This document shows, one piece after another, positions 1-56,665 of a stretch of 64,000 bases of DNA. Location of the stretch: assembly GCA_965214975.1 (NCBI GenBank), contig OZ244055.1, positions 452,875 to 516,874 on the forward strand. The letters are read 5' to 3'. How positions within the stretch are numbered: position 1 is the first letter of the stretch; every line of letters starts with the position of its first letter. A model generated the notes under the pieces. The model saw only the letters and a program-made list of their open reading frames with translations. It did no database searches and was not told the DNA's origin. Both the position numbers and the translations under genes were made by a program. Source of the stretch: Alphaproteobacteria bacterium (GTDB lineage Bacteria > Pseudomonadota > Alphaproteobacteria > MPNO01 > UBA830).

Positions 1-514
1 GGCGTTGAGCTTCCTGGCGACAGCCCGCCCCATGACCTGCAACGCCACCCGCCGGGCCTCGACCGCCTGGAAGTCCTCGACCACGTCCTCGCCGATCAGG
101 CGCCCGGCCTCGGCCCCGGCCTCGTGCGCGACCGACGACCGGAGCCCCCCTTTTTGCCGGCGCGGCCGGCTTGCGGGCGTCCAGCCGTGCATCGCATATC
201 CGGCCGCTGATCTCGACCAGTTCGCGCACCAGCGCGCGCAGGCGACGGAACTCCGCGATCTCGGCCCGCGTTTCCTCGACGGCATCGGCGGGGACGGTGC
301 GGCCCCGGGTCTTGCCCGTCTCCCTGTCCGGCCAGGTCAGCAACCAGTAGGGGCCGTGTCCCCGCGCGCCTTCGGCCGCGCAGTGGCAGGTGGGCTTGCC
401 GCATTTGCGGTGCTGTGCCCTGAGCGAGCCCTGGCGGAGGTCGCCGATGTCCGCCAGCTCCCGCAGGAGCTGGCCGCGCCGTTCGACGAGGCCGTCGCGT
501 TCGGCGGTCGCCAT
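1..514 (-). mobile_element. IS transposase, 5' portion only (gene runs off the window); N-terminal Cys/His zinc-motif domain
   Basis: Minus-strand ATG at 514 gives MATAERDGLVERRGQLLRELADIGDLRQGSLRAQHRKCGKPTCHCAAEGARGHGPYWLLTW... From memory, the CGKPxCxC..HGPYW motif matches DUF6788-type N-termini of ISKra4/ISNCY-like transposases. Left of the C6T5 run (145-155) the protein-like reading moves to another frame (..AGRLIGEDVVEDFQAVEARRVALQVMGRAVARKLNA). Not in the ORF track because no stop lies in the window. Confidence 0.45.
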
Positions 515-729
515 GTCCGTCTCCTTCTGTATCTCGGTAAAGGAAACCGAAATCGTGGCGGAACCACGGCGTTTCTCAACCCCTCAAATCCTGACGTGCA
601 CCCCCGGAAAGTCCGGACCTTGCCTGCCGGGCGGTTGTCGGATACGGTGCGCGCACGCGGCGCGGGCGACGGACCGGCCGGCGCGCGAAATCGAAAACGG
701 CGAAACCTGACGGGAAGAGGGGCGGATCA

Positions 730-3700
730 ATGGGCGCGCACCGGCGAGAGAACTGCGGCACGATCTCCGGAATCCGCAACGACCGGCACGGAACCGTTCG
801 CGGCACGCCCCCCCCCCCCCGGTCCGGCGGCGAGAGCGCGGCTGGCCTGCCTGGCCCTGCCGTGCGCCGTCGCCCTGGCGGTCATGTCGCCGACGGCCGC
901 CCGGGCGCAGGTCCACGTCAGCAACGATGTTGCCGGAAACTTTTTCGTGGACGGCCCGACGCAGGGCAGCGCCTCGAGCGAGAGCACGCTCCATCTCGCC
1001 CAGCCGTTCACGACCCCTTCGGGATCCGGCGGCATCCCCCTCCGGAACGTCGTTCTGCACTTCACCTCCATGCCCCTCTCGCTCGGTCAGGTGAAACTGT
1101 ACCTGTACCGGGCCAAGGCGAACCCGAACCCCACGAGCCCCCCGGCCTTCGCCCCGACGGTTCCGGATTCGGGCACGGTCGACTCGACGACCAACGAGCC
1201 CGCGGCCGCGGGCCGGCTTGCCGAATTCGCGACCCCCGTGAGCCTGGGGGGAGGCAGGTACCGGTTCGCCGCGCCCGCGAACACCGCTCTCGACGCGGCC
1301 ACCACGTACCATCTGTATCTGTGGTCGGTGGCGAACCTGACCGGGCCCGAATGGAGATCGGTGGACATCACCAGAACCCCCGGCGGCGCTCCCGGCGACG
1401 CGGGTTTCACCGGGCACAACTCCCAGTGCCCGCCGGGCGGCTGGGCTCTCCTGCGCGGGCTGAGCGCCGACGTGAGAAACCCCGGCGGCGAGGGCTGGAT
1501 CCCCGATGGCAACGGCAGGCTCGTGTACGTCACGGAGATCGTCGGAGAGCCGAACCACACCCCCAGCGGGAGCCCGGCGATCGCGGGAACCCAGACGATC
1601 GGCGAGACGCTGACGGCCGGCCCCGGGGATCTCGCCGACCTGAACGGCGCGCTGTCGTCGTTCGTCTACGAGTGGTTCCGGACCGACGCCGACGGGACGA
1701 ACTCGCAGGCCATTCCCGGCGCGACCTCCCCGACCTACACCCCGACGGAAGACGACGAGGGCAGACGGCTCCGGGTGCAGGTGACGTTCACCGACGCCGA
1801 CTGCTACGAGCAGACGACGAGCGTCCTCGCCGCCAACACGTTCGCCGAGGGCCTGGCGCTGGAGGCGGAGGGCGGCACGGCGCAGGTCGGCAAGACCCTG
1901 ACGGCGGAGACCGGCGGCATCGCGGACGCCGACGGCCTGCCGTCCTCGCCCGCGTTCACCTACCGGTGGACGCGGGTGGACGCCGACGGCGTGTCGAACC
2001 CGGAGGACATCGCCGGCGCGACGTCGCGGACCTACACGCCGGTCGAGGCCGACGAGGGCAAGCGGGTGCGGGTGACGGTGGGTTTCGCGGATAGCGACGG
2101 CCACCGCGAGGCGGTCGGCGCCCTTTCCGCGCCGATCGCGGAAAGGGCGCCCGCGGTCATCACCGTCGCGGCGGGCGGAAGCGTGACCGAGGGCGCGCCC
2201 GCGATCTTCACGCTGACCCGCACCGAGGAGCTCGCCATCGCGCTGGCGGTCGAGGTCACGGTGTCGGAAACCGGCGACATGGTCGCCGCGGGCGACAAGG
2301 GGACGCGGACGGTGACGTTCGGCGCGGGCGCGACCACCGCGACGCTGGAGGTGCCGACCGCGGACGATTCCGCGGTCGAGCCGGACAGCACGGTGACCGT
2401 CGCCGTCCAGGACGGCGACGGCTACGTCCCGGGCACGCCGTCGGAGGCCGAGGTCGTGGCGGAGGACGACGACCCGGCCGTCACCGTCGCGGCGGGCGGC
2501 AACGTGACCGAGGGCGCGCCCGCGATCTTCACGCTGACCCGCACCAGGGACACCGCCATCGCGCTGGCGGTCGAGGTCACGGTGTCGGAAACCGGCGACA
2601 TGGTCGCCGCGGGCGACAAGGGGACGCGGACGGTGACGTTCGCAGCGGGCGCGGCCACCGCGGCGCTGGAGGTGCCGACCGCGGACGATGACGCGGACGA
2701 GCCCGACAGCACGGTGACCGTCGTCGTCGAGGACGGCGGCGCCTACGACCCGGGCACGCCTTCCGAGGCCGGGGTCGTGGCGAGGGACAACGACGGGCCT
2801 CCGGTCGTCACCGTCGCGGCGGGCGGCAACGTGACCGAGGGCGCGCCCGCGCGTTTCACGCTGATCCGCACCAAGGATCCCGCCGCCGGGCTGGCGGTCG
2901 AGGTCACGGTGTCGGAAACCGGCGACATGGTCGCCGCGGGCGACGAGGGGACGCGGACGGTGACGTTCGGCGCGGGCGCGGCCACCGCGGCGCTGGAGGT
3001 GCCGACCGTGGACGATTCGGAGCGAGAGCCGGACAGCACGGTGACCGTCGCCGTCGAGGACGGCGGCGCCTACGACCGGGGCACGCCTTCCGAGGCCGGG
3101 GTCGTGGCGTCGGACAACGACCATCCGGTCGTCACCGTCGCGGCGGACGGAGACGTGACCGAGGGCGCGCCCGCGAGCTTCACGCTGACCCGCGCCGGGG
3201 ACATCTCCGCCGCGCTGGAGGTCGAGGTCGCGGTGTCGGAAACCGGCGACATGGTCGCCGCGGGCGACGAGGGGACGCGGACGGTGACGTTCGCAGCGGG
3301 CGTGGCCACCGCGGCGCTGGCGGTGCCGACCGTGGACGATTCCGCGGACGAGCCCGACAGCACTGTGACCGTCGCCGTCGCGGACGGCGACGCCTACGAC
3401 CCGGGCACGCCTTCCACCGCCGCCGTCGTGGTGGCGGACGAAGACGAGCCGGCGGTCGTCACCGTCGCGGCGGGCGGAGACGTGACCGAGGGCGCGGCCG
3501 CGAATTTCACGCTGACCCGCACCGGGGACGCCGCCACCGCGCTGGCGGTCGAGGTCGCGGTGTCGGAAACCGGCGACATGGTCGCCACGGGCGACAAGGG
3601 GACGCGGACGGTGACGTTCGGCGCTGGCGCGGCCACCGCGGCGCTGGCGGTGCCGACCGTGGACGATTCCGCGGACGAGCCGGACAGCACGGTGACCGTC

Positions 3701-5302
3701 GCCGTAGCGGACGGCGGCGCCTACGACCGGGGCACGCCGTCGGAGGCCGGGGTCGTGGTGGCGGACAACGACGAACCCGCACCTTCCTCCGTCGTCACTA
3801 GGCGGACGAAGGCGACGACCTACAACCTCTCCGCCATCGGGCGCGCAGTCACCAAGACCGTCGTCAACCGGGTCTGGGACCGTGCCGCGCGCCTGGATTC
3901 AGGGGACGTCCCGTCGTTTGCGACGGTTGGCGGACGCGTCGTCGACGCCGGCGCGCTCGCCGACGCGCGGCGCGTGTCCGGGGCGGTCGCCGGGCTTTTC
4001 GGGGCCGGCGGCGCGCCCGGGAGCGCGCGGGGCGCGGCGGCGGACTTCCACGCCCCGGACGCCGGCGGATACCGGGATCTGAAGCGGGGGCTGCTGCCCG
4101 ACGCCCGCAGCCTCCTGGGGCGGACCCGGTTCGAGCTGCGGCCGGGCGGCGCGGGTTCCGGCGCGACCGGCTCTCTCGCGGTCTGGGGGCGCGGCGACTT
4201 CACCGCCTTCGAGACCAGGGTCGAGGACGACGACATCGCGGACTTCTCCACCGAGGGCGAGGTGTTTTCCGGCCATGTCGGCGTCGACTACAGGCCCGGC
4301 CCGGGGTTCCTGGCCGGCATCGCGGCGGGGCATTCCCGGGGCGAGGCGAGCTACGCCTTCGCCGACCGCCCCGGCGTCCGGGACGACATGAAAACCACGC
4401 TCTCGAGCGTCCATCCCTATCTGCACTGGATGCCGTCGCGCGGCCTTCGCGTGTGGGGCACGGTCGGCTACGGCACCGGCACGGCGACCATCGTCGAGGA
4501 CGCGGTCCGGACCGAGACCGACCTCACGATGCGGACGGTCGGAGGCGGGGCGCGAAGCGAGATCTCCCGCCTCGACGGGACCGAGGTGGCGGTCAAGGCG
4601 GACGCGTTCCTCACCGAGATCGAGGCCGACGCGGCGGGCGGCGGGCGGACGCTCGCCGGGACGACGGCCGAGGCCAGCCGGATGCGGGCCGCCGTGGAAG
4701 GCGTCCGCAGGTGGGCTCTCGAGGAGGGGGACAGTCTCTCCGGGACGCTCGATCTCGGCGTGCGCATGGACGGCGGGGACGCCGGGGCCGGCGCCGGGGC
4801 GGACGTCGCCGGCGAGCTGCGCTACGCTGCTCCCCGGGACGGTCTCGAGGTGGCGTTGCGGGGCGGCGCGCTTCTCGTCCACGAGGCCGACGGCGTCGCG
4901 GAGTGGGGCCTCGGACTGCAGGTGGTCTACGATCCCGGCGTCCCCGGCAGGGGCGTCCGGCTCGCGCTCGGCCCCGCCTGGAACGTCCCGCGGTCGGGCG
5001 TGGCCGAGGCGATGTGGAACGCCGATGCGGGGTCCGGGGTCCGGAGCGGGGCATCGCCGGACCGGGGCGGCGCGGTCGTCGCCCGCCTGGGCTACGGCAC
5101 GGTCGCGCTGCGCGGCCGGGCGCTGGCGACGGCGTTCGGGGAGGCCGGCGGCGACGGCGACGGCGCCCGCCTGCGCCTGGGGACGGAACTGCGGCCGGCG
5201 GGCGCCGGCCGCCGGTTCGGCCTCGGGATCCACTGGGAGAGGCGGGATCTCCGGGCCGGCCCGGAACATGCGCTCGGGATGAGGCTCGGCCTCGAATTCT
5301 AG
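730..5302 (+). CDS. Type Va autotransporter adhesin with Ig-like and Calx-beta-like repeat passenger; start unresolved (leader ATG 730 is +1 out of frame across the C13 tract)
   Basis: Track ORF 5..5302. After the tract it encodes a signal peptide (ARARLACLALPCAVALAVMSPTAARA/QV) and Ig-like repeats (..TYTPTEDDEGRRLRVQVTF..). Five ~108-aa repeats follow (VTVAAGGxVTEGAPAxFTLTR..SETGDMVAAGD..EPDSTVTV). The C-terminal beta-barrel (..VWGRGDFTAFE..HPYLHWMP..) ends in GMRLGLEF. Confidence 0.85.
808..820 (+). repeat. C13 homopolymer between the leader ORF and the adhesin signal peptide
   Basis: Counted directly: 13 consecutive C (808-820). Read as PPPP in both the ATG-730 frame and the adhesin frame. 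Confidence 0.95.
2155..3780 (+). repeat. Five in-frame tandem coding repeats, period 321-327 bp (type A Calx-beta-like module)
   Basis: The GTCACCGTCGCGGCGGGCGG motif recurs at about 2158, 2479, 2806, 3130 and 3457. Five near-identical antisense ORFs in the track (2032..2391 to 3394..3690) mirror the periodicity. Confidence 0.9.
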
Positions 5303-5452
5303 GCGTCCGCGCCGCGGGTGCGGAACCGTCCGTCCCCGGCATTCCGGCCCGCGCCTGAAATCCGGGCCATTGCGGTTTCCGGCCTGTTGTTGCGCACCCG
5401 GGATCGCGGCGCCGCTTTCGCGGTCCCGTCGCCCTGTTCCGGGGAGCGCCGC

Positions 5453-6097
5453 TCAGCGTCCGCGAGAATCGATCGCGAGGCCCGCCGCCCGCGCGACGGT
5501 GCGCGCGTCGGCGTCCGGGCGGGCGTCCCGGCGAACGGCGATCCGGTTTCCGCCGGCCTCCCGGATGGCGGAGGCGAGGCGCACCCCGTCCGCAAGCCTG
5601 TCGCGGATCGCGCTCCAGCGGTCATGCAGGCCGCGTGCCGTCGGGCGGTTTCGCGGCGGACGGACCGCGTGGCAGGCGGGGACGGCGGTGAGCGGGCGGG
5701 CGGCGATGCGCGGGATTCCGCTGTTCCCGACCGGGCGCGGGCCGACTCCGGATTTCAGGCTTCGGAAGGCGACCTCGGTCCCGGCGATCTCCCGGCGGGT
5801 CCGGACTGCGGTTTCGGGATCCCGCTCGACATGGCTGGTGCGCGGCACGTGGATGCCCGCCTGCCGGTCGCGCTCGGCATGAAGGGCGTTGCGCCTCCGG
5901 CGGACGTCGCCGGCCCGCCCCCTCTCCCCGGGCTCCGCCTTGACGTCGCGCCGGCGGCGGACCCGCCGGTGTCCTTCCTTCAGCCGACCCGGCTTTCCGG
6001 TCACCCTGTCGGACTTCCTGCCGCGGTTCTTCCTCGACAGCCCGTCATGCGGGGCGCGCAGGGCGTCCCCGAAGTTCCGGCGCCGACGGGCGAGCAT
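5453..6097 (-). CDS. Hypothetical, very basic protein (about 214 aa); start uncertain
   Basis: Part of track ORF 5453..6334 (-). Third-codon positions are ~85-90% G/C by hand count, unlike the R/S/P-rich plus-strand ORFs sharing those positions. The C-terminus is protein-like (GLHDRWSAIRDRLADGVRLASAIREAGGNRIAVRRDARPDADARTVARAAGLAI). No family recognised. Confidence 0.3.
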   Translation of the reverse strand: MLARRRRNFGDALRAPHDGLSRKNRGRKSDRVTGKPGRLKEGHRRVRRRRDVKAEPGERGRAGDVRRRRNALHAERDRQAGIHVPRTSHVERDPETAVRTRREIAGTEVAFRSLKSGVGPRPVGNSGIPRIAARPLTAVPACHAVRPPRNRPTARGLHDRWSAIRDRLADGVRLASAIREAGGNRIAVRRDARPDADARTVARAAGLAIDSRGR

Positions 6098-6450
6098 GGC
6101 CTCGTCCTTCCGCCGGCGCTCATGGCTCCGGATGCGCGGCCGCGCTTCGCCGTCCCCCGCCTCGGGATCCGGGCCGGGCACGATGCCCGGCCCGGATCCC
6201 GAAGGCGGCGTCGGCCTTGCGCCCGCAGCCAGGCGAGGCGACCTCTGCGGAGACGCCCGCGTCCCTCGCGATCGCGGGCCCGGGGGCGCTGCGGCCGCCG
6301 GATCGCTGTTCCGGTCGCCCGATGGCGCCGGCAAGGGCTGCCGGCCCGGAGACGCTGCCGGGCAGGATCCCGCCGTGCCGCGAGAAGCCGGCCCCGTTCG
6401 GCAATAGGCCGACGGTCACGATCGGGCAATCGTTGCGCTTCCGCCTCGAA

Positions 6451-6613
6451 CACGCCGCCGGTCCGCCGGCAGCGGCATCCGGCGCCTCCGGACCCGAATC
6501 CCGCCCCGAAAGAAGGCCGCGACCCCGCGAAACGGACCGTCGCGCGCCAGCCGCGACGCCCGGACGCGGCCCGGACCGACCGGAATCGGCCGCAATCGGG
6601 GAGCGTGGGACAC
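6451..6613 (+). repeat. Intergenic repeat element, long copy (B segment ... A segment)
   Basis: CACGCCGCCGGTCCGCCGGCAGCGGCATCCGGCGCCTCCGG ... AATCGGCCGCAATCGGGGAGCGTGGGACAC. Both ends recur at 37827-37919. The A segment recurs inverted and the B segment direct at 26424-26512. Confidence 0.8.
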
Positions 6614-6710
6614 TCCTGGGGTGATTCGCCAGACGCCTTGCCAGCCCCCTTTTTTGCTGTACCATCTTCCCGAGCGTCGAGGTTCGGGACGTTCAACTAA
6701 GGAGGCAGAG

Positions 6711-6953
6711 ATGGCGGAAGCTAGACGACTGGTCCGCGGGGTGCTGGAAATGCTTCTGTGGCTGGTGGCGGTGCTGACGCTGTTGCAGGTTCTCTTCGGC
6801 AACAGTTTCGTTCAGTTCTTCGGAATAGACGTCGTGGGCAACATCGGCGCCCTCGTCGCGAAGTTCGGCAATGCCGGGCTGGTCGGCATCATCGCCGCGG
6901 CGGCGGTGGCCTACATGATCGTGCGCGAGCGGTCGGGCGGCGTCGAACGGTAA
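6711..6953 (+). CDS. Small two-TM membrane protein, paralogue 1 (80 aa)
   Basis: AAGGAGG six nt upstream of ATG 6711. MAEARRLVRGVLEMLLWLVAVLTLLQVLFGNSFVQFFGIDVVGNIGALVAKFGNAGLVGIIAAAAVAYMIVRER..; about 45% identical to the next ORF. Confidence 0.65.
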   Translation: MAEARRLVRGVLEMLLWLVAVLTLLQVLFGNSFVQFFGIDVVGNIGALVAKFGNAGLVGIIAAAAVAYMIVRERSGGVER

Positions 6954-7026
6954 CGCGGCCGTCCCGACGGGCGGTCCGGAGTAGCGAGTCGGAAGTTCAA
7001 ACCCAAGCAATCCATGGAGGACGAAA

Positions 7027-7248
7027 ATGCTTGACAACATCACAAGATGGCTGAGAGGCGTCATTGACCTGGTTGTCGTGCTGGTTGTGCTCGGAGTGGT
7101 GCTGCAAGTGCTGTTCCCGCAGGCGCTGATCTTCGTCGACGCCGACGTCACCGGGAACCTGATCAACCTGATCAACAAGTTCTCCGGCGCGGGCCTTGTC
7201 GGCCTGATCGCGTTCGGTCTCGTCTACTACTTCGCCCAGAGGCGGTAG
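7027..7248 (+). CDS. Small two-TM membrane protein, paralogue 2 (73 aa)
   Basis: TGGAGGA RBS before ATG 7027. MLDNITRWLRGVIDLVVVLVVLGVVLQVLFPQALIFVDADVTGNLINLINKFSGAGLVGLIAFGLVYYFAQRR. Shares the LQVLF..DVxGNl..L..KF..AGLVGxIA pattern with 6711-6953. Confidence 0.65.
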   Translation: MLDNITRWLRGVIDLVVVLVVLGVVLQVLFPQALIFVDADVTGNLINLINKFSGAGLVGLIAFGLVYYFAQRR

Positions 7249-7260
7249 GTCCGGGCATCC

Positions 7261-7290
7261 GGGCGGCCGGGCGTCCGCGCCCGGCCGCCC
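7261..7290 (+). terminator. Strong GC hairpin after the small-protein pair (putative terminator, no U-tract)
   Basis: GGGCGGCCGGGCG-TCCG-CGCCCGGCCGCCC: perfect 13-bp stem with a 4-nt loop, 13 nt after the stop at 7248. Confidence 0.5.
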
Positions 7291-7391
7291 GTTCCGCCGC
7301 GACCCGCGGCCGGCCGCCCGGCGCGGGCCCGGAAAGAGGCTTTCCGCCTCCCGGGCCGGCGCCGGGCGGTCGGCCGTTCCGGGGGCGCGCT

Positions 7392-7420
7392 TTGAACTGC
7401 CGGCCCTTTGACCGTATAAA
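7392..7420 (+). promoter_or_regulatory. Putative sigma70-type promoter of the nuo operon
   Basis: TTGAAC (7392-7397), 17-nt spacer, TATAAA (7415-7420), about 55 nt upstream of nuoA. Confidence 0.5.
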
Positions 7421-7474
7421 GCGGGACGCGCCGCCGGGCCGGCGCCGCGGCCCGCGGGCCAGCGGAGTGTGCAC

Positions 7475-26970: not shown

Positions 26971-28272
26971 TCAGCGCGAGGCGTCTCCTCCGGCGCCGTT
27001 GCCGGTTCCTTTCGCGCGGCCGCCGGCGGACCCCGGTTCCGGGTCGGCCAGCATGGCGGCGGCAGCGTCGAACGGCCGTTCCCGGAGCGGAAACGGCATG
27101 TGGCCGTCGTGCTTGTCGCCGATGCCCTCGTGCCACCTTCGGAAGGCTCTCCGGTACCGCATTATGACGGCCCGGCCCTTGCCGCTGTTCCATCTGAAGT
27201 GCGGGTTGTCGGTCAGCGATCCCGGCCGGACGCGGGCGAAAGTCAGCGGCCACGGGCGATGCGCGACCCGGTCCTCGCCGAACAGGACGCCGAGCCGTCT
27301 CTCGAACTCGCTGTCGCTGCCGAAGCGGACCGGATCGAAGAATCCCGCCCGTCGCAGAACCTCGTCTCTGCGGAACACCAGGGAGACCGCGGCGGGATGC
27401 AGATAGTACTGGATCGTCGCGGTTCCCCCGGACGAACCCGCGTCCGGGACCGCCTGCAGGTTGGCCTTCGAGAGGAGAGCCCCTTCCGCCGTCATCCGCA
27501 CCATGGCGGTCGTCAGCGCGACGGTCCCGGGCGCGGAGGCCAGAACCGCGACGCTCTTTCCGATCCTGTCGGGATGGGACCAGTCGTCGCCGTCCTGGAA
27601 GGCGACGAACTCCCCTTTGGCGTGGAGCAGGCCGGCGTTCCGGCTCGCGAACGCCCCGCCGTTCCGGTCCCTGGCTATCACCCGGATCCGCCGGTCCCCG
27701 CTCGCGGTGCGACGCAGCGCTTCCAGCGTTCCGTCGGTGCTGCGGTCGTCGACGACGATCAGTTCCAGGTTGCGGTAGCCCTGGTTCAGGATCGACCTGA
27801 CCGAGAACCCGACCAGGCGCTCGACGTTGCAGGCGGTCATGACGACCGACACCAGCGGCCCGTCGCGCAGCGGCGGATGGCCGTCCGGACAGCGCGGCGC
27901 CGCGGTCGCCGCGACCGTCAGCCGGTCGAAGACGGCGCGGCCGCGGGCCCGGCCCACGCGGACGGGCCGGCAGCCCATCGCCAGGTACCCGTCGTCAAGG
28001 CATCGGACCGCGCGCTCCGGAGCGTCCGGCCTGTCGGCCCTGGCCAGCGCATAGCGGAAAAACGGCAGCTGCCCGGCCAGGTGGCCGGAGAGAGCCCCCG
28101 CGTCCAGCAGCTCCAGGTTGCGCCGGGCGGCCTCGAGGTCGCCCAGCTCGATCGCGCAGCCGGCGGCCAGCAGCCGCGCCCCGGCGTCGTCGGGCCGCGT
28201 TTCGAGATCGCGCAGCGCCAGCTTCATCGCCGCCCCGTAGTCTCCCGAACAGACCAGTATGTGGGCCGCCAC
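26971..28272 (-). CDS. TPR-like N-domain + family 2 glycosyltransferase
   Basis: ..VSVVMTACNVERLVGFSVRSILNQGYRNLELIVVDDRSTDGT..ARDRNGGAFASRNAGLLHAKGEFVAFQDGDDWSHPDRI.. The track ORF extends to 28500, but that stretch overlaps the inverted repeat and is low complexity. GTG 28272 is the assumed start (alternatives ATG 28230 or 28428). Confidence 0.8.
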   Translation of the reverse strand: MAAHILVCSGDYGAAMKLALRDLETRPDDAGARLLAAGCAIELGDLEAARRNLELLDAGALSGHLAGQLPFFRYALARADRPDAPERAVRCLDDGYLAMGCRPVRVGRARGRAVFDRLTVAATAAPRCPDGHPPLRDGPLVSVVMTACNVERLVGFSVRSILNQGYRNLELIVVDDRSTDGTLEALRRTASGDRRIRVIARDRNGGAFASRNAGLLHAKGEFVAFQDGDDWSHPDRIGKSVAVLASAPGTVALTTAMVRMTAEGALLSKANLQAVPDAGSSGGTATIQYYLHPAAVSLVFRRDEVLRRAGFFDPVRFGSDSEFERRLGVLFGEDRVAHRPWPLTFARVRPGSLTDNPHFRWNSGKGRAVIMRYRRAFRRWHEGIGDKHDGHMPFPLRERPFDAAAAMLADPEPGSAGGRAKGTGNGAGGDASR

Positions 28273-28440
28273 CTGCGAAAGCCCCGGACGGGGGAGGGGG
28301 GATCCTTGCGTCGAAGCCCCGCGCGCGGGACTTCCCCCCGAACGCGGAATCCCGCGAACGGCTCGAACGCGGAGGTTCCCGGCAAGTCCGGCAAGCCACC
28401 TTCTCGAACGGAGGTGTTCGAACAGCATGTGCCAAGCAAG

Positions 28441-28494
28441 GCCGGAACGCGCCAGCCCGAGGACGGCCACGACCGGGATCCGGTTGCAACCGGG
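28441..28494. repeat. Right arm of the 54-nt inverted repeat flanking the glycosyltransferase cassette
   Basis: GCCGGAACGCGCCAGCCCGAGGACGGCCACGACCGGGATCCGGTTGCAACCGGG. See 26828-26881. Confidence 0.7.
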
Positions 28495-28604
28495 CCTCAC
28501 GGCTCCCCCCTCCCACCGGAGTTCCGGGCGACGAGACGGAACGTTCCGGTCATCCGGGCCGCATCCGGGATTCCGCGTTCGAGGGGAGTTCCTTCGCCGC
28601 GGCC

Positions 28605-28627
28605 GGGGGGGGGGGGGAGAGAGAGAG
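28605..28627. repeat. Compound microsatellite G13(AG)5
   Basis: Counted directly: 13 G (28605-28617) followed by AGAGAGAGAG. On the glycosyltransferase sense strand this reads (CT)5C13. Confidence 0.95.
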
Positions 28628-29117
28628 GGTTCCGGAAATCGGCACCGTTCCGTGATTCCGTCGGGTTTCCGAAGACCCGGCGGGGAGAACGGCCCCGTGG
28701 TGCCGGGACGGGCATTGTACCGGTCCCGGCATCGCGTTCAAGCCGGCGCGCTCCCGCGGCCCGGGGAGGATCCCGGGCCGTCCGGCGGGAGACGTCGCCG
28801 TCTCGCGGCGGTTCCCGGGTTCGCGCGCGGCGGGAGCCTTCTTCCCCGTTTCCGCGGCCTGCCCGGCCGGCCGGGGACCGCGCGACGCCGGCGCGCGCGT
28901 TCGTCGCCGATTCAACCTGCCGACGACGCGCACCCCTGGCGGCACGGGATCCTGCCAGCCGGGCCGGTCCGGAACCGCGGGCGCGGGATCACCCTGCAGA
29001 AGCGCCGGGGACGGCATGCGCGAAGGCGGGTCATGGCGTAGAATGGCGCCGGGTCCGGATTCCGCCGGAGCCGCTGTTGCGGGGAACCGTTGCGGCGCGC
29101 GACTGCTGGAGGGGTCG

Positions 29118-39308: not shown

Positions 39309-40346
39309 ATGGACTCGGCGAACGGGAACTCCGGCCGTCGCCCGCCGTTTTCCCGGGGCCGCGCGCTGCAGGCGGCGGCGCTGGCGGTCGCGGCCGTCGC
39401 CGTCGTGTTCACGTTCAACAACTTCCTTGTCTTCTGGCTGGGCTGGCCCGGCGTCGGCGCGCCGCTCTCCGATCTCGGCTGGGGCGTCCGGCCGTCCCGT
39501 CCTCCCGACGGGGCCGCGGCCGCGCAGGGCTGGCTCCAGCTCCTTTCGTACGCCGCCGCGATCGGTCTCGCCGTCGCCTTCGTCCGGTTCGGCCGCGGGC
39601 GCACGCTGACCCGGGACGCCGACGTCCTCGCGGCGTTCGCCGCCTACATCGCCCGGGCCGCCTTCTGGGCGGTGCTTCTCGTGGGCGTCGCCGACATGGC
39701 GATCTCGTTCCTGCGCGTCGAGGGGCTGCTCGCGCAGACGGTCGGCGAAGGCCTTGCCAGGGATCTCGGACGGCCCAGTTTCCGCGGAACCGCGGTGCAT
39801 TTTCCGCTGATCGCGGCGGCCTTCGCGATCGCGGGGTTCCTGCGCTCTCTCGGGTTCATCTGGCTCGCTCTCCTGATCGTGCTCGCCGAATTCCAGATCG
39901 TGCTGGCGCGGTTCATCTTCTCCTACGAGCAGGCGTTCATGGGCGATCTCGTGCGGTTCTGGTACGCCGCGCTGTTCCTGTTCGCGAGCGCCTACACGCT
40001 GATCACGGAAGGCCACGTCCGGGTGGACGTCGCCTACGCGTCGTTCGGCGAACGCGCCAGGGCGTGGTCCAACCTGGTCGGTTCGGTCGTCCTCGGCGTG
40101 CCCCTGTGCTGGATCATCCTCGCCGCCGGCATGCGGACCAAGTCGTCGGTGATCAACGCGCCGCTTCTGAGCTACGAGGTCACGCAGAGCGGGTACGGCA
40201 TGTACGTGAAGTACCTGATGGCCGGGTTCCTGCTGATCTACGCCCTCAGCATGCTCATGCAGTTCCTCGGTTACGCGCTGCGCAACGCGGCGGTGCTTCT
40301 CGGGGACGCCGATGCGCGTCCGGTCGCCCACCAGGGCGCGCCGTAG
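39309..40346 (+). CDS. TRAP transporter small permease component (long form, 345 aa)
   Basis: Membrane ORF between the binding protein and the large permease. ATG 39309 lies within track ORF 38511..40346. Confidence 0.75.
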   Translation: MDSANGNSGRRPPFSRGRALQAAALAVAAVAVVFTFNNFLVFWLGWPGVGAPLSDLGWGVRPSRPPDGAAAAQGWLQLLSYAAAIGLAVAFVRFGRGRTLTRDADVLAAFAAYIARAAFWAVLLVGVADMAISFLRVEGLLAQTVGEGLARDLGRPSFRGTAVHFPLIAAAFAIAGFLRSLGFIWLALLIVLAEFQIVLARFIFSYEQAFMGDLVRFWYAALFLFASAYTLITEGHVRVDVAYASFGERARAWSNLVGSVVLGVPLCWIILAAGMRTKSSVINAPLLSYEVTQSGYGMYVKYLMAGFLLIYALSMLMQFLGYALRNAAVLLGDADARPVAHQGAP

Positions 40347-43005
40347 CGGGCCCGTGGAGATCGTCTTTCTCGCGGTTCTCGTCGTCACCATGGCGGCGGC
40401 GCTGGCGTCGGGCTATCCGGTGGCCTTCGCGCTCCCGGGATCGGCGATCCTCTCGATCGGGCTCGCCGCTCTCTGCGGCTATCTCTTCGCCGGCCATCCG
40501 GACGCCTATTTCCTGCACGGCGGGCCGCAGCAGTGGCTGACCGCCGGAGTCACGAACTTCCGGGGAATCTACTGGGAGGTCGAGCGCGACACGCTGATCG
40601 CGATTCCGCTGTTCGTCTTCATGGGGATCATGCTGGAACGCTCGAAGGTGGCCGAGGATCTTCTCGTCACCATGGCCCAGCTCTTCGGGCCGATTCCCGG
40701 AGGTCTCGGCATCGCGGTCGTGTTCGTCGGCGCGCTGCTGGCGGCGACCACGGGAATCGTCGGCGCGACGGTCGTGGCGATGGGGCTGATCTCGCTGCCG
40801 GTGATGCTGCGCGCGAACTACTCCAGGTCGCTGGCGACCGGAACCATCAGCGCTTCGGGAACCCTCGGCCAGATCATTCCGCCGTCCATCGTCCTGATCA
40901 TCCTCGCCGACCAGCTCGCGAGCGCGGCCGACCAGGCGAGCACGCTCCGGAAGGCCGAGTTCAAGGCGGCCACGGGGCAGGCGTCGCTGCCGAGCGAGTA
41001 CGGTCTCACGTCGACCAGCGCCGGCGACATGTTCCTCGGGGCGCTGCTGCCGGGGCTGGTTCTCGTCGGCCTCTACATGACCTACATCCTCGTCCTGTCG
41101 CTGCTGCGCCCGAAGGCCGCGCCGCCGGTGCCGTTCGAGACCGGCTTCGACGCCCGTTTCGTGCTCAGGGTCCTGCTCGCCCTGGTGCCGCCGCTCGCGC
41201 TCATCTTCATCGTGCTCGGGTCGATCATCATGGGCGTGGCCACGGTCAACCAGGCCGGCGCGATCGGGGCCGTGGGCGCCGTGATCATGGCCGGCTACCG
41301 CCTGCGGTCCGGGCACCCCGGCTCGTTCGTTCCCAGCGTCCTCGCGGTTGCCGCCGTCGGCGCTCTCGTCGTCCTTCTCGGCATCTACGACATCAACATC
41401 AAGAACACGCGGACCGCCTCCGAATGGACGGGCGTGGGCCTTGCCGCGGCCGCCGTCGCCGTCCTGCTGGTCGCGGTCGTCTGGAGCCTGTGGCGGGCCT
41501 ACCGCATCGACGACATTCTCCGCGGCGTGATGATCGAGACCGCGAGGACGACGTCTCTCGTCTTCATCATCCTTCTCGGCGCGGCCATGCTCACGGCCGC
41601 CTTCCGCGCGTTCGGCGGCGAGGAGCTGGTGCGCGATTTCCTGTTCGGCCTGCCGGGCGGCTTCATCACGAAGTTCGTCGTGGTGATGGCCGTCATCTTC
41701 ATCCTCGGGTTCTTTCTCGACTTCATCGAGATCGCGGTGGTCGTGGTACCGATCATCGCGCCGATCCTGCTCGCAGACACCTCGGCCAACATCACCGCGG
41801 TGTGGCTTGGCGTGATGATCGGCGTCAACATGCAGACCTCGTTTCTCACGCCGCCTTTCGGCTTCGCGCTGTTCTATCTCCGGGGCGTCGCGCCGCCCTC
41901 GGTCAAGACCGTCCAGATGTACGCCGGCGTGGTGCCGTTCATCCTGCTTCAGCTGGCGGGACTCGCCATCGTCGGGTTCTGGCCGGCTCTCGTGAACTAT
42001 CTCCCGACCCGGGTCTATCTCACGGCGGAAACCGCGCCGCCCCCCAAGAACCCGCGGCTCCAGCTGTGCCTCGAGGACATGCTTTTCAAGGCCTACGAGG
42101 CGAGGGCCGACGAACTCCGCGGCGCGGTGGCCGCGGGCGGGCGGCTCGACGTCTCGTACCTGCCGCGTTCGCTCCGTTCCGGCCTTGAAGAGGGGTTCGA
42201 GGCGGCGGCCGGCGTGTTCGACCGGGTTCTGGAGGTGGAGTCCGCGGCAGCGGAGGTCGCGGCGTACGATCCCGTGTACCGGCCGGTCCACCGCGAGGTC
42301 CGCGGGCTCCAGCTTCGCATCCGCGAGCGGAACGACGAGGCCGCCGACGTCGAGGACCGCATCCGCCAGCGCCGCCGGGACGGCGCCGACGCGGCCGATC
42401 TCCGGACGCGGCTCGCGGAGATCCTCGAGGAGATCGCCGCGCTCGAGGCGAGGCTTCCGGACGGCTGGGAGGAGAAGCGCAAGACCTACCTCGCGCTCGC
42501 CGGGGCGGAGACGCGGGCGCGGAGAGCGTACCGGAGGGCCGTCGACGACGCCTACGAGCCGGCCGCGTCGACGCTCGGGATCATCGGCCAGACCGACGCG
42601 CTCGCGGCCGTCGGCCGCAGGCTCGGAGCGTTGCGGGAGGCTGCGGCGTCCCTGCCGCCGGCGGAGGCCGCGCAGCGGTTCCGGGAAGCCGAGAGGCTGT
42701 TCTCGGGCCTCGACGGGGTGAGCCACGTGAGATCCCGGTTTTCGCGGGCGCGCCGGATGCTAGGCCGCGACCAGCCCGACCCCGAGCGGGCGCGCGCGGC
42801 GCTCGAGGAGGGGTTGCGGCGCTACGAGGCGGAACTGTCGTGGCGGCGTCGCGCGGCCGGGGAACTGCGGCCCGGGCTCGCGGCGTACGAGGCGGCGATC
42901 CGCGACACGATGGGGCTGCGCTCGCAGGCGCGGCTGAACGGCGAGCAGGCTGCGGCGGTGGCGGGCTGCATGTCTTCGCACCGGGACATCTCGCTGAACT
43001 TCTGA
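40312..43005 (+). CDS. TRAP transporter large permease (DctM-like) with a ~330-aa C-terminal soluble extension
   Basis: ..AIPLFVFMGIMLERSKVAEDLL..GTLGQIIPPSIVLIILAD..PFGFALFYLRGVAPP.. to about 42010. A charged, helical-looking tail then runs to CMSSHRDISLNF in the same frame. The exact start is uncertain. Confidence 0.85.
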   Translation: MRVRSPTRARRSGPVEIVFLAVLVVTMAAALASGYPVAFALPGSAILSIGLAALCGYLFAGHPDAYFLHGGPQQWLTAGVTNFRGIYWEVERDTLIAIPLFVFMGIMLERSKVAEDLLVTMAQLFGPIPGGLGIAVVFVGALLAATTGIVGATVVAMGLISLPVMLRANYSRSLATGTISASGTLGQIIPPSIVLIILADQLASAADQASTLRKAEFKAATGQASLPSEYGLTSTSAGDMFLGALLPGLVLVGLYMTYILVLSLLRPKAAPPVPFETGFDARFVLRVLLALVPPLALIFIVLGSIIMGVATVNQAGAIGAVGAVIMAGYRLRSGHPGSFVPSVLAVAAVGALVVLLGIYDINIKNTRTASEWTGVGLAAAAVAVLLVAVVWSLWRAYRIDDILRGVMIETARTTSLVFIILLGAAMLTAAFRAFGGEELVRDFLFGLPGGFITKFVVVMAVIFILGFFLDFIEIAVVVVPIIAPILLADTSANITAVWLGVMIGVNMQTSFLTPPFGFALFYLRGVAPPSVKTVQMYAGVVPFILLQLAGLAIVGFWPALVNYLPTRVYLTAETAPPPKNPRLQLCLEDMLFKAYEARADELRGAVAAGGRLDVSYLPRSLRSGLEEGFEAAAGVFDRVLEVESAAAEVAAYDPVYRPVHREVRGLQLRIRERNDEAADVEDRIRQRRRDGADAADLRTRLAEILEEIAALEARLPDGWEEKRKTYLALAGAETRARRAYRRAVDDAYEPAASTLGIIGQTDALAAVGRRLGALREAAASLPPAEAAQRFREAERLFSGLDGVSHVRSRFSRARRMLGRDQPDPERARAALEEGLRRYEAELSWRRRAAGELRPGLAAYEAAIRDTMGLRSQARLNGEQAAAVAGCMSSHRDISLNF

Positions 43006-47984: not shown

Positions 47985-50900
47985 TCAGAAGGCGACGCCG
48001 CCCTTGAGCACGACCAGGCCGTCCGGCCGGCCCCGGTCCCCGCGCCGCTCGCCGTAGAGCTCGAGGCCCGGTCCCGCGGTCCCGCGCAGCCGGAACTCCA
48101 CGCCGAGGCGGACACGGTCGTCGTCGCCGGACCGCCCCAGCTCGCCGAACGCCGTCGTCACGGCGCGGTCCCGGAGCACCCCCCACCCGTAGCCCAGGCG
48201 GGCGTCGAGGGACGCGCCGCCGCCGCCGCCGCCGCGGCCCGCGGCGCCGGGGTCGGCGTTCCACATCGCCTCGGCGACGCCGCGCGCCGGCGCGCCCCAG
48301 GACGGCGCGAGCCGGAGCCGCAGGCCGCGGCCCCGGACCCCCGGATCCCAGTCCAGCCCGAGGCCGAGGCCCCACTCCCGGAAGCCGCTTTCCTCGTGGG
48401 CCAGAAGCGCGCTGCCGCGGCCCCGGATCTCGAGACCGGCATGCGGCAGGACGTAGCCGAAGCCCAGCGCGAGGTCGGCGCCCGCGCCCCGCTCGGCGTC
48501 CCCGTCGTCGAGACGCGCGCCGAGCTCGAAACTGCCGGCGAGCTCGCCGCCGTCCGCGAGCGCGCGGCGGGAGCTTCCCTCGAGGGCCAGACGCACCCGG
48601 GACGCCGCGGCGTCGACCTCCAGGAGCTCGTCCTCCACGCCGTCCGCGGACACCGTCGCGTGGAACGCGTCGGCCTTCACCGCGAGACCGACCCCGCCGA
48701 CCGACGCGAGATCGTCCCGGACCCCGGCGGCGACCGTGCGCATCTCGACGTCGGTCCCGACCGAGCCGTCCCGGTCCGCGATCTCCGTCGAGCCCCTGCC
48801 GTAGCCGGCCGTCCCCCAGACGCCGAGACCCGTCGGCGACATCCAGTGCACGTAGGGATGCGCGCTCGTCAGGGTCGTCTCCACGGCGCCGCCGCCGTCG
48901 CCGCCGCCGAAGGCGTAGTCGATGTCGCCGACCGTGCGGCTCACCGCGACCCCGGCAAGCAGGTCGTCCCGGAAGCGGTGGTCGAGACCGAGATGCGCGG
49001 CGAAGATCCCGCCCTCGCTCGAGAATGCGCCGATCCGGTCGTCGTCCTCGTCCAGCCCGTCGCTCCCGACCTCGGTGAACGTGCCGCGGCCCCACAGCGT
49101 GAGACCGCCCGCGGCCCCGCCGTCCCCGCCGGGCGACAGCGCGAACGCCGTCCGTCCCAGCAGGTCGCGGCCGTCGGGCGGCGCCAGCCCGCGGAAGCCG
49201 TCGGCGGAACCGCCGCCGGGGCCGTGGCGGCGCTCCGCGCCGCCGGCGTCGCCGGAAACGCCGCCGACGCCGCTGACGCCCATGAGGCCGGCAAGGACGC
49301 CGGCCGCGGGCGCGCCCGGCGCCAGGGGCTGCCCGCCCACCGTCGCGCGCGAGCCGGCGTCCCCGGAGCGGTGGCTTTCGGCGCGGTCCCAGACCAGCTC
49401 GACAACGTTCGCCGCCACCGTCCGGCCGGTGGCGGCGAGAACGTACCTCAGCGCCAGCGCGCGCCTCTCGCTCCGCCCCGCGCCCAGATCGTATCTCGCC
49501 TCCCACCCCTCGTCGTTGTCGGAGACCCGGGCCGCGTCCACGTCCACGAGCCTCACGGTCGCGGCCTCGGTCTCCCCGTCGACCTCGACCGCGACCGTCA
49601 TTCCGGTGTCGCCGCGCTCGAACGTCAGGGTTCCGGCTTCCTCCTCCCCGTCGCGCGCCTTCACGTAGCCGACCCCGAGGGCTTCGCGCGCGGGCCACGG
49701 CCGGTCCAGGCCCACCGTGAACGCGACGGTCGCCGTCTCCCCGACGGCGGGCCTCTTCACCGACCCCGGCGCGGGCGCGGCCACCGACAGCACCGGCCGG
49801 GCGGCGAGCCAGTGCTCCGTTCTCCGGGGCTCCGGCAGCAGGACGTTGGTCGAGCCCGTCAGCCCGAGCTCCACCACCTCGGCGGCGTCGCCGGCCTCCA
49901 CCTCGACCGTTCTCCGGGTCTCCCCGTGCTGGAACGTCAGCAGCCCGGAAACGGCGCCGCCCCCGTCCACGACCGTCTCGTGGTCGACCGTCACCAGGTC
50001 GTCGCCCGGCCCCGTCGGCGGATCCAGCGCGACCGTGAAGGTGACGGTCCCGGCCTCGTCCGCGGCCTCCACCGACAGCCGGCGGTCGTCGTCGCGGACG
50101 GTCCCGAGACCCCGGCCCGTCCCGATCTCGTATCCCGCGGCGCTCGTGACGCTGTCCAGCGTGACCACCACGAGCCCGTCGCTCTCGGCCTCCCTGTCGC
50201 CCTCGACCGTCGCCACGATCGTCTTCGCGGTCTCCCCCGGCGCGAACGCCAGCGTGCCGGTCGTCGCGCGCATGTCCCGCTCGGCGAGCCTGACCTCCGC
50301 CGCGCCCGTCACGGTGTAGTCGACGCTCACCGGACCGTCCGCGGCTTCCGACAGCGTCACCGGGAACCGGAGTTCCGCGGGGCCCCCGTCGCCCTCGACG
50401 ACGCTCGTCGACCCGACCCAGACCGCCGGACCGGACGTCCCGCGCGCGTCGTCGTTCCGGATCGTGCCCGTCCCGCGGTGCCTGCGGAGCAGCGCCCCGC
50501 CGGTCGGGTCCGAGAGCGTGACCACGACCGTCTCGTCCAGCTCGAAAACCCCGTCGCCCTTCACCGGGACCGTGACCGTCTGCCTGGTCTCCCCCGGCGC
50601 GAACGCGACCGAACCGGCCTCGGGGGCGTCGTGGTCCCTTCCGGCCTCCGCCGTGCCCCCAACCGTGTAGTCGACGACGACCTCCCGGTCCGACGCCGGC
50701 GCCAGCGTCACCGCGAACGCCAGGTCCGTCGTCCCGGAATCGCCCTCGTCCACGCTCGGCGAGTCGATCGAGAGCGCCGATTCGTCGTCGTCCCTGATCG
50801 TGCCCGTGCCGGTGCCGGTCCCGATCGTCGCGCCGCCGGTCGCGCCCGACAGCGCGATCTCCACCGTCTCGTCGTTCTCGTCGATCCCGTCGCCCCTCGC

Positions 50901-55199: not shown

Positions 55200-55214
55200 T
55201 GGATCGCGCTCCAA

Positions 55215-55224
55215 GGGGGGGGGG
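55215..55224 (-). repeat. C10 (sense strand) homopolymer just upstream of the adhesin-2 signal peptide
   Basis: Counted directly: 10 consecutive G on the plus strand (55215-55224). Confidence 0.95.
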
Positions 55225-55577
55225 CACGGGACTGGTGCTGTGCACCTTTTCCGTCCCGCAGCGACCAAGCCCTGTTTTTCCCGCCATGCTTCCGTCTCCC
55301 GCTTCCTCGACCCGACCGAGAACGGACCCAAGGTAGTGCCCCCGACCGCATGGCGTCAACCGGCCCCGGGAGGTCGCGGATTGCAGGGCAGCGATCGCCG
55401 GCGTGGGCGCGGCGGAGACGGGTGGCGGACTTCCCCGATGCGGTCCGAAGCGTTCCCGCGTTGCCGGTCGGCGTGGGGCGGGCGCCGCTCGGGCGGCGAC
55501 GGGTCGGCCGACCGCGGGCTCGATGCAGCCGTGGTTGCAGAGCGTGCGGAGCCGCCGCGGAGCGTTGCGCCGGACCA

Positions 55578-55915
55578 TCAGGGCCTCGCAGGCGGCCGCG
55601 CGGTCGTGGCAGGCTTGCGGTTCCTCGGCATCGGGTGGATGACGCGCAGCGTCCCGGGCGCGCCCGCGACGATGGCGCGCTTGCAGCCGCGCCGTGCCGC
55701 GAAGGCGCGGTGCCGGGCCCCGAATCGGCGGCCCCTGGTTCTCGCCGCGCCGTGGGCGCGCTCGACGAGGACGGCGCGCAGGATCCTGGCTCTCTTGCGG
55801 GTGTGCCCCGCGCTTCGCTTTCCGGCGCTTTCGCGGTTGCCGGGACAGCGGCCGGCCCGGGAGGCGGGACGCTCCCTGGAGGCGGATGCGTTGATGTCGG
55901 CTCGATGAGGACCGC
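55578..55915 (-). pseudogene. IS110-family transposase, 3' remnant (degenerate)
   Basis: Minus-strand reading ..RESAGKRSAGHTRKRARILRAVLVERAHGAARTRGRRFGARHRAFAARRGCKRAIVAGAPGTLRVIHPM.. resembles the IS110 C-terminal SGK..G...IS..GN..LR..L...A pattern. No N-terminal part is present. Not listed as an ORF in the track. Confidence 0.35.
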
Positions 55916-56481
55916 GGTCGCGGAGTCGCGCGAGGGCAAGCAGCCCGACGGTCGCGCGAAGACCCGCGAGGCCAGGCTAGTCGCCGTGTGGTCGGCGCAA
56001 ACCTCCGCAAACCTCCATTGCCGGGGGCCAGCCACCCCGTGCAATGAAAAAAACGGACGCCCGTTCCGCGACGGGGCTTCGGGCCATGATCCGGGGGAGC
56101 CCGCCGGTCGCGGTCCGCAGGACGGGAACGGGTCCGGCGTGCTTCTGGCGCTCTCGGAGCCGTGCTCCGGCAGCGCACGGGGTCTGTTTGCCGAATCGCG
56201 GAATCTTTTTCACGGCAAACGGGACGTCCACCCGTCAACGGGACGGGCCCGCGCCGAGGCTCCGGACCGGCCCGGTCGCCCGCATGACGGGAGTCCGAGC
56301 CGGATCCGGCCGGTTGGCGGTGTCCTCGCGGACCGCCGCGACGCGGGACCGCCCCGAGCCGCCTGGATCGGACGTTCGGCCAGCGCGGGACGGTCCCGCA
56401 CCCCGATTTCCGCGGTCTTGACAGCCGCGGCGATTCCGCGCATCTTCGGATCGTGCCGCCGTTCGCTCTTCGGCGGCGGGC

Positions 56482-56557
56482 CGGGGCCGTAGCTCAGTTG
56501 GGAGAGCGCAGCGTTCGCAATGCTGAGGTCAGGGGTTCGACTCCCCTCGGCTCCACC
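56482..56557 (+). tRNA. tRNA-Ala (anticodon CGC)
   Basis: Hand-folded cloverleaf: GGGGCCG/CGGCTCC acceptor with G3:U70, anticodon loop TTCGCAA, T-arm AGGGG-TTCGACT-CCCCT, encoded CCA; 76 nt. Confidence 0.92.
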
Positions 56558-56665
56558 AGTCCCCGTGCACCATCCCCCCTTCTCCGCAGGCCTCGCCGGA
56601 GACGCGCCCGGTCACCCGAGAGCGGGCGCCTTCCCCGACGGCGGCCCGCGCGGGCCTGCCCGCCG

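Follow-up and report, generated by a model that had tools for sequence, protein, structure and literature searches.

A candidate poly-C contingency tract between leader and signal peptide of an autotransporter-type adhesin gene in an uncultured alphaproteobacterium

In several bacterial surface genes, the length of a homopolymeric tract sets the reading frame. The autotransporter genes nalP and mspA of Neisseria meningitidis carry a coding poly-C tract that ranges from 6 to 15 nt among strains and gives an ON frame every three bases, as confirmed by immunoblotting (PMC3723659). In Bordetella pertussis, bapC has a G11 tract that is out of frame in the reference; contraction by one base restores the frame, and tract length varies within single colonies. 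Poly-C tracts are also present in the promoters of other surface genes (fim) of this organism (PMC1891110). In the sortase-pilin genes of Bifidobacterium breve UCC2003, a G tract splits the Sec signal from the body; the reference is OFF, cultures are mixed, and short reads fail after the tract (PMC9187656). Here we analyze a stretch of 64,000 nt (the window; G+C 71.6%) from the metagenome-assembled genome (MAG) of an alphaproteobacterium (GCA_965214975.1, contig OZ244055.1, positions 452,875 to 516,874 of the forward strand). Near its start, a run of 13 C residues (C13) at 808-820 lies in the 5' coding region of a gene for an autotransporter-type adhesin, designated adhesin 1, and is a candidate switch of this kind.

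Adhesin 1 resembles nalP and mspA in that the poly-C tract is within the coding sequence of a gene predicted, in its case, to be of autotransporter type, and the frame would set ON or OFF. The Neisseria genes, however, belong to a betaproteobacterial human pathogen in which tract variation and ON/OFF states of the protein were shown experimentally, whereas adhesin 1, with its passenger of Calx-beta and Ig-like repeats, belongs to an uncultured alphaproteobacterium and is a predicted case. With bapC and tcfA of Bordetella the adhesin genes of the window share a high-GC genome and G/C tracts in the 5' part of genes that are, or in the window are predicted to be, of autotransporter type; they differ in taxon and lifestyle, and for the Bordetella genes variation within colonies was demonstrated. 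As in the B. breve pilins, secretion signal and body can be joined only at certain tract lengths when they stand in two frames. In that Gram-positive organism, however, the tract follows the Sec signal, whereas in adhesin 1 it precedes the hydrophobic core of the signal peptide.

Leader, tract and signal peptide of adhesin 1

The initial annotation described an ATG-initiated leader that reads into a C13 tract and is out of frame with the signal peptide and body of the adhesin, and this anatomy is present as claimed. An SD-like (Shine-Dalgarno-like) sequence, AGAGGGG (716-722, plus strand), is spaced 7 nt from the ATG at 730-732, which opens a leader of 26 codons (730-807, plus strand; MGAHRRENCGTISGIRNDRHGTVRGT) forming an N-terminal extension before the signal peptide. 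In the ATG frame the tract is read as PPPP and is followed by a junk frame that stays open until 2094. The adhesin body begins straight after the tract in the +1 frame and comprises 1,493 codons (821-5302), close to the roughly 1,490 residues first reported. It consists of a signal peptide (821-907, plus strand; GPAARARLACLALPCAVALAVMSPTAARA) with a putative cleavage site ARA/QV, judged by eye, a passenger and a putative C-terminal translocator domain. The n-h-c organization of the signal peptide, read from the sequence, is ARARL / ACLALPCAVALAVMSP / TAARA-QV; the junction of leader and signal peptide is …RGTPPPPGPAAR…, and the predicted mature N-terminus is QVHVSND. From the tract to the hydrophobic core, the body frame has CTG codons only, with zero ATG, GTG or TTG, as had been noted; its first ATG, at 884, is already within the core.

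As sequenced, the tract has one C in excess. We computed the reading frames for tract lengths from 9 to 17 and obtained a single open reading frame (ORF) of 1,522-1,524 aa at C9, C12 and C15; every other length was OFF. The earlier statement that C12 or C15 would fuse leader and body thus holds, and extends to C9. The tract makes up codons 27-31 of the true ORF, which is full only at lengths of 3n. Codon usage changes frame at the same place: upstream of C13, the G+C content at third codon positions (GC3) is 22/26 (85%) in the ATG frame versus 16/25 (64%) in the remaining two; downstream, the body frame reaches 53/60. Because the GC3 preference changes frame there, a frame switch at C13 is supported.

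Orthologues were sought with the hypothetical fused N-terminus of adhesin 1 as the query. One close relative (protein P0001 on contig L001, 72% identity) has the sequence MDTHRRGAPMISEIRNDPHGTGRGGRTGVAARARLTCMALPC…AARAQVHVSND, in which the same leader and the same signal peptide share one frame; GGGCGCACC takes the place of the C run at the tract position. The alignment of L001 with the window begins at the SD sequence, and there is no similarity 5' of it. The second orthologue, on the complete MAG chromosome OZ244045.1 (L002), shows 85% DNA identity over the first 1.5 kb of the adhesin-1 gene, and its ORF, which begins at the homologous ATG (MGAHWRENRSMISEIRNDSHGTHGTVRGTGRPGPAARARLACLALPC…), is intact; its sequence at the tract position is GGGCGCCCC, read ACG GGG CGC CCC GGT. 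Both keep the signal peptide, including its n-h-c organization, and both have a purine-rich SD-like sequence at the matching site (GGAGGG in L001, GGGAGGAG in L002). Conservation of the leader peptide in the ATG frame extends over three species. When in-frame indels are netted out, the window differs from L001 and L002 by +1 nt, and the excess is inside the run. The initial annotation had proposed comparing tract lengths at orthologous loci. The comparison yields no length series: the orthologues L001 and L002 have no tract at all at this position, instead of one of another length, and the same is true of the more distant L003 and L004 described below.

Because the orthologues fuse the same leader in frame to the same signal peptide with no tract between them, sequence comparison indicates that ATG 730 is the true start, that the leader is a real N-terminal extension and that the gene is broken exactly at the run. 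The earlier view of a single gene of leader, signal peptide and body, broken by one extra C, is supported by the same two orthologues. The body frame does have upstream start-like codons, TTG 635 and GTG 647. The latter, placed at 648 in the initial annotation and raised there as a possible start with an invariant tract, is not conserved: it is CTG in L002. TTG 635 is broken in L002 by a 1-nt gap, and the stretch from these codons to the ATG contains additional gaps whose lengths are not divisible by three.

The extended signal peptide region of some autotransporters, ESPR (PF13018), was considered as an identity for the leader. It is ruled out by the Pfam search, in which neither leader plus signal peptide of the two adhesins gave a match at E<=1; the extension of ~26 residues is a different, lineage-specific sequence.

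Long C/G tracts in the window and in related genomes

Runs of C or G in the window number 471 at a length of 4 nt, 107 at 5, 17 at 6 and one at 7; there are none of 8 or 9, one of 10 and two of 13. Analytic extrapolation from the decay of the shorter runs gives an expectation for the window of 0.005-0.1 runs of at least 10 nt and 1e-5 to 1e-3 runs of at least 13. The C13 tract is far from chance, and run lengths follow a bimodal distribution. Four C/G runs in the 64 kb reach 7 nt or more, and every one falls within, or a short way upstream of, one of two adhesin genes or a glycosyltransferase gene, close to the 5' end. At all three loci the homopolymer (C13, C10 and C13, respectively) is long enough for hypermutability, for which at least ~8-9 nt is needed.

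The second adhesin gene, on the minus strand, has the same layout. An ATG at 55287, with an SD-like GGGAGA upstream, opens a leader (55225-55287; MAGKTGLGRCGTEKVHSTSPV) that reads as PPP through a C10 tract (55215-55224; G10 on the plus strand) with one C in excess. Signal peptide (…RRPFAFLSAAAVMACFLPGLSAQA/QDP) and body follow in the +1 frame and together comprise 2,409 aa (47985-55214). In the computed frames C9 and C12 are ON and C10 is OFF. The initial annotation drew a parallel between the two genes. The poly-C run and the identical +1 offset bear it out, but the tract is only C10, the gene is on the minus strand, and body-frame TTG (55214) and GTG (55199, with GGAG 9 nt upstream) codons do exist between C10 and the hydrophobic core. 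Nor did the proposed homologous leader motif, M.G....CGT, survive, as its CGT is not conserved in the adhesin-1 orthologues; the two leaders share a layout and little sequence, which weakens the argument drawn from their homology. In more distant relatives (P0024 on L003 and P0055 on L004), the leader is in frame, with CCCGGTCCCC replacing the run. A further protein, P0025, shares the first 14 residues of its leader with adhesin 2 and runs in frame through PAPPP (MAGKTGLGRCGTEKARGAIPAPPPRRDPVSR…FAFLSVAAV); it is probably a third paralogous adhesin of the same genome, in the ON frame. The called P0025 protein stops after about 155 residues, its tail apparently out of frame, and there may be another frameshift further in.

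Adhesin 2 also contains a G7, the sole C/G run with a length of 7-9 nt anywhere in the window, on the coding (minus) strand (54890-54896), in frame at about codon 130 (…SSGGAY…), and is thus a two-tract gene. In this it is similar to bapC, which likewise has two tracts.

The third long tract, (CT)5C13 (28605-28627, minus strand; the C13 part at 28605-28617), is in the 5' leader of a gene for a protein with TPR and family-2 glycosyltransferase domains (26971-28500, minus strand). It is ~100 nt 3' of a sigma-70-like promoter match, TTGAAC-16-TACAAT (28741..28714, minus strand), and ~105 nt 5' of the first possible glycosyltransferase start, and no coding signal was seen around it. (CT)5C13 is a third candidate phase-variable locus, possibly acting on transcription or through the 5' untranslated region. 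A short-read contig of the same species, L007, ends ~60 nt past this tract, with G7CG2 followed by garbled sequence; Illumina reads have been reported to break down at G tracts in like manner (PMC9187656).

Across the related loci L001-L011 (~137 kb), we found one C/G run of at least 8 nt, a C28 in L002 (2818-2845), 155 nt 5' of the ATG of the adhesin-1 orthologue. This C28 and the glycosyltransferase tract are comparable to the poly-C of the fim promoters. Since the long tract is upstream of the gene in L002 and in the coding leader in the window, it follows that long C tracts arose at least twice at the adhesin-1 gene, at different positions. The region 1-2845 of L002 holds a CRISPR array (clustered regularly interspaced short palindromic repeats) with 22 copies of a 36-nt repeat (GCATCCGGGGCGCGCGCGCCCCGGCCTCATTGAAGG) at a spacing of 71-76 nt, interrupted by an insert of ~1.2 kb with a 363-aa ORF; C28 starts about 40 nt past the final repeat.

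Slipped-strand phase variation as the likely reading, and its alternatives

We consider it likely that 808-820 is a hypermutable poly-C contingency switch in the 5' coding region of adhesin 1. Of the three mechanisms named in the initial annotation, slipped-strand phase variation fits best, +1 ribosomal slippage is disfavored, and a homopolymer miscall is retained as a minority explanation. Phase variation has this place because the tracts are extreme outliers, stand at the 5' ends of surface-related genes and are absent from the orthologues, and because a relative carries C28 upstream of the same gene. Slipped-strand mispairing at replication would alter the number of C residues in 808-820. 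With 9, 12 or 15 of them, signal peptide and body would be read from ATG 730 across a linker of PPP to PPPPP, and the adhesin would be exported (ON). At all other lengths, ribosomes would enter the junk frame and there would be no secreted adhesin (OFF), although some leak is likely, through +1 slippage on CCC-C or slippage of RNA polymerase. The assembled C13 would be an OFF length, a single contraction short of ON. Adhesin 2, at C10, and the glycosyltransferase leader, at (CT)5C13, are apparently governed alike, and switching at multiple loci would yield mixed surface types in a population.

The sequence shows the anatomy, the true start, the frame arithmetic, the outlier status of the tracts and the absence of the tract from orthologues; we infer that tract length actually varies in the population and that OFF cells are without adhesin.

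Several points weigh against this reading. Scans of JGI metagenome contigs for tract variants, by protein pattern and by exact flanking DNA, gave no match. A 13-nt homopolymer is at the limit of reliable calling on any platform, and the OFF state may be artefactual; moreover, the organism is an uncultured MAG whose consensus may mix cells. For adhesin 2, a start at TTG 55214 or GTG 55199 is conceivable and would give tract-independent expression with a normal-looking signal peptide (MSRRSGPPAARRPFAFLSAAAV…). Finally, C28 in L002 sits between the end of the CRISPR array and the adhesin start, so that only its position ties it to the adhesin promoter.

Among the alternatives, a length miscall survives best, although we think it unlikely. 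The true lengths would be C12 or C15 in adhesin 1 and C9 or C12 in adhesin 2, the genes would be intact in most cells, and the frameshift would be artefactual. Homopolymers of at least 10 nt are the main residual class of long-read consensus error and also defeat short reads, as the garbled end of L007 at the glycosyltransferase tract illustrates, and the genome is a single contig of 3.8 Mb, which suggests long reads. Both adhesin genes deviate in one direction (+1), the pattern expected of a systematic bias, and reference tract lengths that disagree with cultures have been reported (PMC9187656). On the other hand, the independent, fragmented MAG GCA_964347355.1 of the same species covers 14.9 kb of the window at 99.4-100% identity, with 0 indels and 0 length differences in 26 homopolymers of 5-6 nt. 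For ordinary sequence the assembly is therefore clean, although this comparison tests runs of up to 6 nt only. The contigs of that MAG (L005-L007), found for rpsD, puuE and the urate-oxidase neighbor, include none that spans either adhesin tract. In addition, the probable same-genome paralogue P0025 is in frame through PPP, so that an error would not be uniform, and proven phase-variable genes are often recorded OFF in references, such as bapC at G11 (PMC1891110). Even under a miscall the tract would still be intrinsically unstable; this alternative touches the recorded state, not the nature of the element.

We regard it as improbable that both genes are plain pseudogenes, that is, that frameshifts in accidental homopolymers killed two accessory adhesins on their way to loss with no selected switch. 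Both genes are broken as sequenced, and adhesin 1 is in a variable region beside an insertion sequence (IS)-associated DUF6788 ORF and is missing from the same position in three relatives. However, over 4.5 and 7.2 kb of ORF there are no further lesions, GC3 is high (0.90 and 0.94) and all domains are detected intact; the intact remainder of both ORFs speaks against decayed pseudogenes. Moreover, the breaks coincide with the window's only long tracts, at the 5' ends, the optimal position for a switch; a third tract precedes a glycosyltransferase gene, and the L002 orthologue has its C28.

Recoding would make C13 and C10 the normal lengths, with the adhesins made by +1 frameshifting on CCC-C, by RNA polymerase slippage, or both, at a low and tunable level. 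We judge this very improbable. Exactly a +1 shift is required at both loci, and the CCC CCC CCC CCC C context and +1 direction of adhesin 1 are those of frameshifting at CCC-C by tRNAPro (m1G37/EF-P [elongation factor P]), in which peptidyl-tRNAPro re-pairs one base downstream, helped by polyproline stalling. CCC-C is documented as +1-slippery: tRNAPro is equally stable in the 0 and +1 frames, and frameshifting reaches up to ~1% beside the start codon in Escherichia coli (PMC4519876). At adhesin 2, furthermore, the last CCC is followed in the 0 frame by CUU, a codon likely to be rare at 72% GC. Programmed frameshift sites, though, are normally conserved, whereas this slippery site is missing from L001, L002, L003 and L004, all of which are single-frame. 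Nor is there a nearby 0-frame stop (the junk ORFs are 454 codons in adhesin 1 and 146 in adhesin 2); the next 0-frame codons are CGG and CUU, respectively, and neither a stimulatory SD sequence nor a stimulatory structure downstream was identified. The probable paralogue P0025 is in frame, and at known unprogrammed rates of about 1% or less, at most a leak would be expected.

Least credible is an upstream non-ATG start (TTG 635 or GTG 647 for adhesin 1, TTG 55331 for adhesin 2), with poly-C read as PPPP in a long extension and the ATG leader coincidental: such codons are present and the body frame is open through the tract, but those of adhesin 1 are not kept in L002, L001 is dissimilar above the SD sequence, the SD sequences of these codons are poor, and both the GC3 above the tract and the leader peptide conserved in three species favor the ATG frame.

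Protein class, genomic setting and significance

Pfam searches and translation show both adhesins to combine Calx-beta repeats with Ig-like domains. The passenger of adhesin 1 (908-4099, plus strand) has a conserved N-terminal domain, SCAB-Ig/AIR9-like repeats and ~5-6 Calx-beta-like repeats (roughly 2230-3850); adhesin 2 has a He_PIG Ig-like domain, 10 Calx-beta repeats and a C-terminal domain. The C-terminal ~400 residues of the two are 48% identical. The putative translocator domain of adhesin 1 (4100-5302, plus strand), which ends in ...GLEF and a stop codon and thus has F as its final residue, appears to be a divergent relative of autotransporter beta-domains. It had no direct match in Pfam, NCBIfam or a PDB sequence search. 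It shares 31% identity (E 3e-30) with the C-terminus of P0055, and that C-terminus matches PF03797 (autotransporter beta-domain) at 35 bits. A profile search with this domain returned 6,853 representative homologues, in nearly all of which it forms the very C-terminal end of a protein of 1-7 kaa, and 5 of 10 sampled homologues (E<1e-55) exceed the PF03797 cut-off. An AlphaFold model from a two-sequence alignment had a pLDDT (predicted local distance difference test score) of 35 and was not used for a fold search. Both proteins can be classed as predicted autotransporter-type adhesins, with membership through transitive PF03797 matches only.

The window is core chromosome, with nuoA-N, RNase J, puuE, rpsD and tRNA-Ala genes. 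Its NuoD has its best named matches in Alphaproteobacteria/Rhodospirillaceae, at 85-86% identity, and the alphaproteobacterial assignment in the initial annotation is therefore plausible. The IS-associated DUF6788 ORF (1-513, minus strand; ATG 513) is continuous off the start of the window and abuts adhesin 1. In three relatives whose NuoD is 91-92% identical, the place upstream of nuoA lacks an adhesin and is taken by an aldo-keto reductase, a permease and other genes, in one case with an ISAzo13 transposase fragment; these relatives hence contribute no tract to the comparison. Because they have other genes at that position, adhesin 1, between 1-513 and 5303-7468, is in a variable, probably acquired segment.

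Upstream of the adhesin-2 start by 1.15 kb is a tRNA-Ala(CGC) gene (56483-56558, plus strand); the ~1.1 kb between them (55332-56482) has no clear coding signal. The sole Rfam match, to 'tmRNA' at 47.6 bits (gathering score 47), corresponds to that tRNA-Ala. Elsewhere, a DctM-type permease gene of the TRAP transporter family (40312-43005, plus strand) encodes 897 aa, about twice the usual length, in two matched stretches; since this gene is also present in the independent MAG contig L005, it is no assembly artefact.

The initial annotation held that poly-C control was undescribed for alphaproteobacterial autotransporters. A limited literature search found no precedent in that class; for autotransporters of Neisseria and Bordetella the same mechanism is well documented. 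As a mechanism it is textbook material, and no concept is changed. New are only the taxon, the involvement of several loci, a tract placed before the signal peptide, and the long C tract that arose independently at this gene in a sister species. A practical consequence concerns annotation, as such genes are liable to be called pseudogenes or given spurious upstream starts, whereas the true starts here are ATG 730 and ATG 55287.

More tentatively, and with rather more doubt than confidence, we suggest a wider phasome: an uncultured, possibly host-associated alphaproteobacterium in which at least 2-3 paralogous autotransporter adhesins and a glycosyltransferase would be switched, with tracts arising independently in sister species, ON lengths grading expression through EF-P-dependent stalling, and OFF (+1) lengths leaking through CCC-C. 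Whether numerous phase-variable loci per genome really are restricted to pathogens and commensals, or only seem so through database bias, is a question raised in a recent review (PMC11868660). Poly-C switches on adhesin and glycan genes in an alphaproteobacterial MAG would, if true, be one data point against that restriction and would extend multi-locus phase variation by simple sequence repeats past the classical pathogens. They would also imply that the adhesins of this organism are under fluctuating selection, for example by phage, host or grazers.

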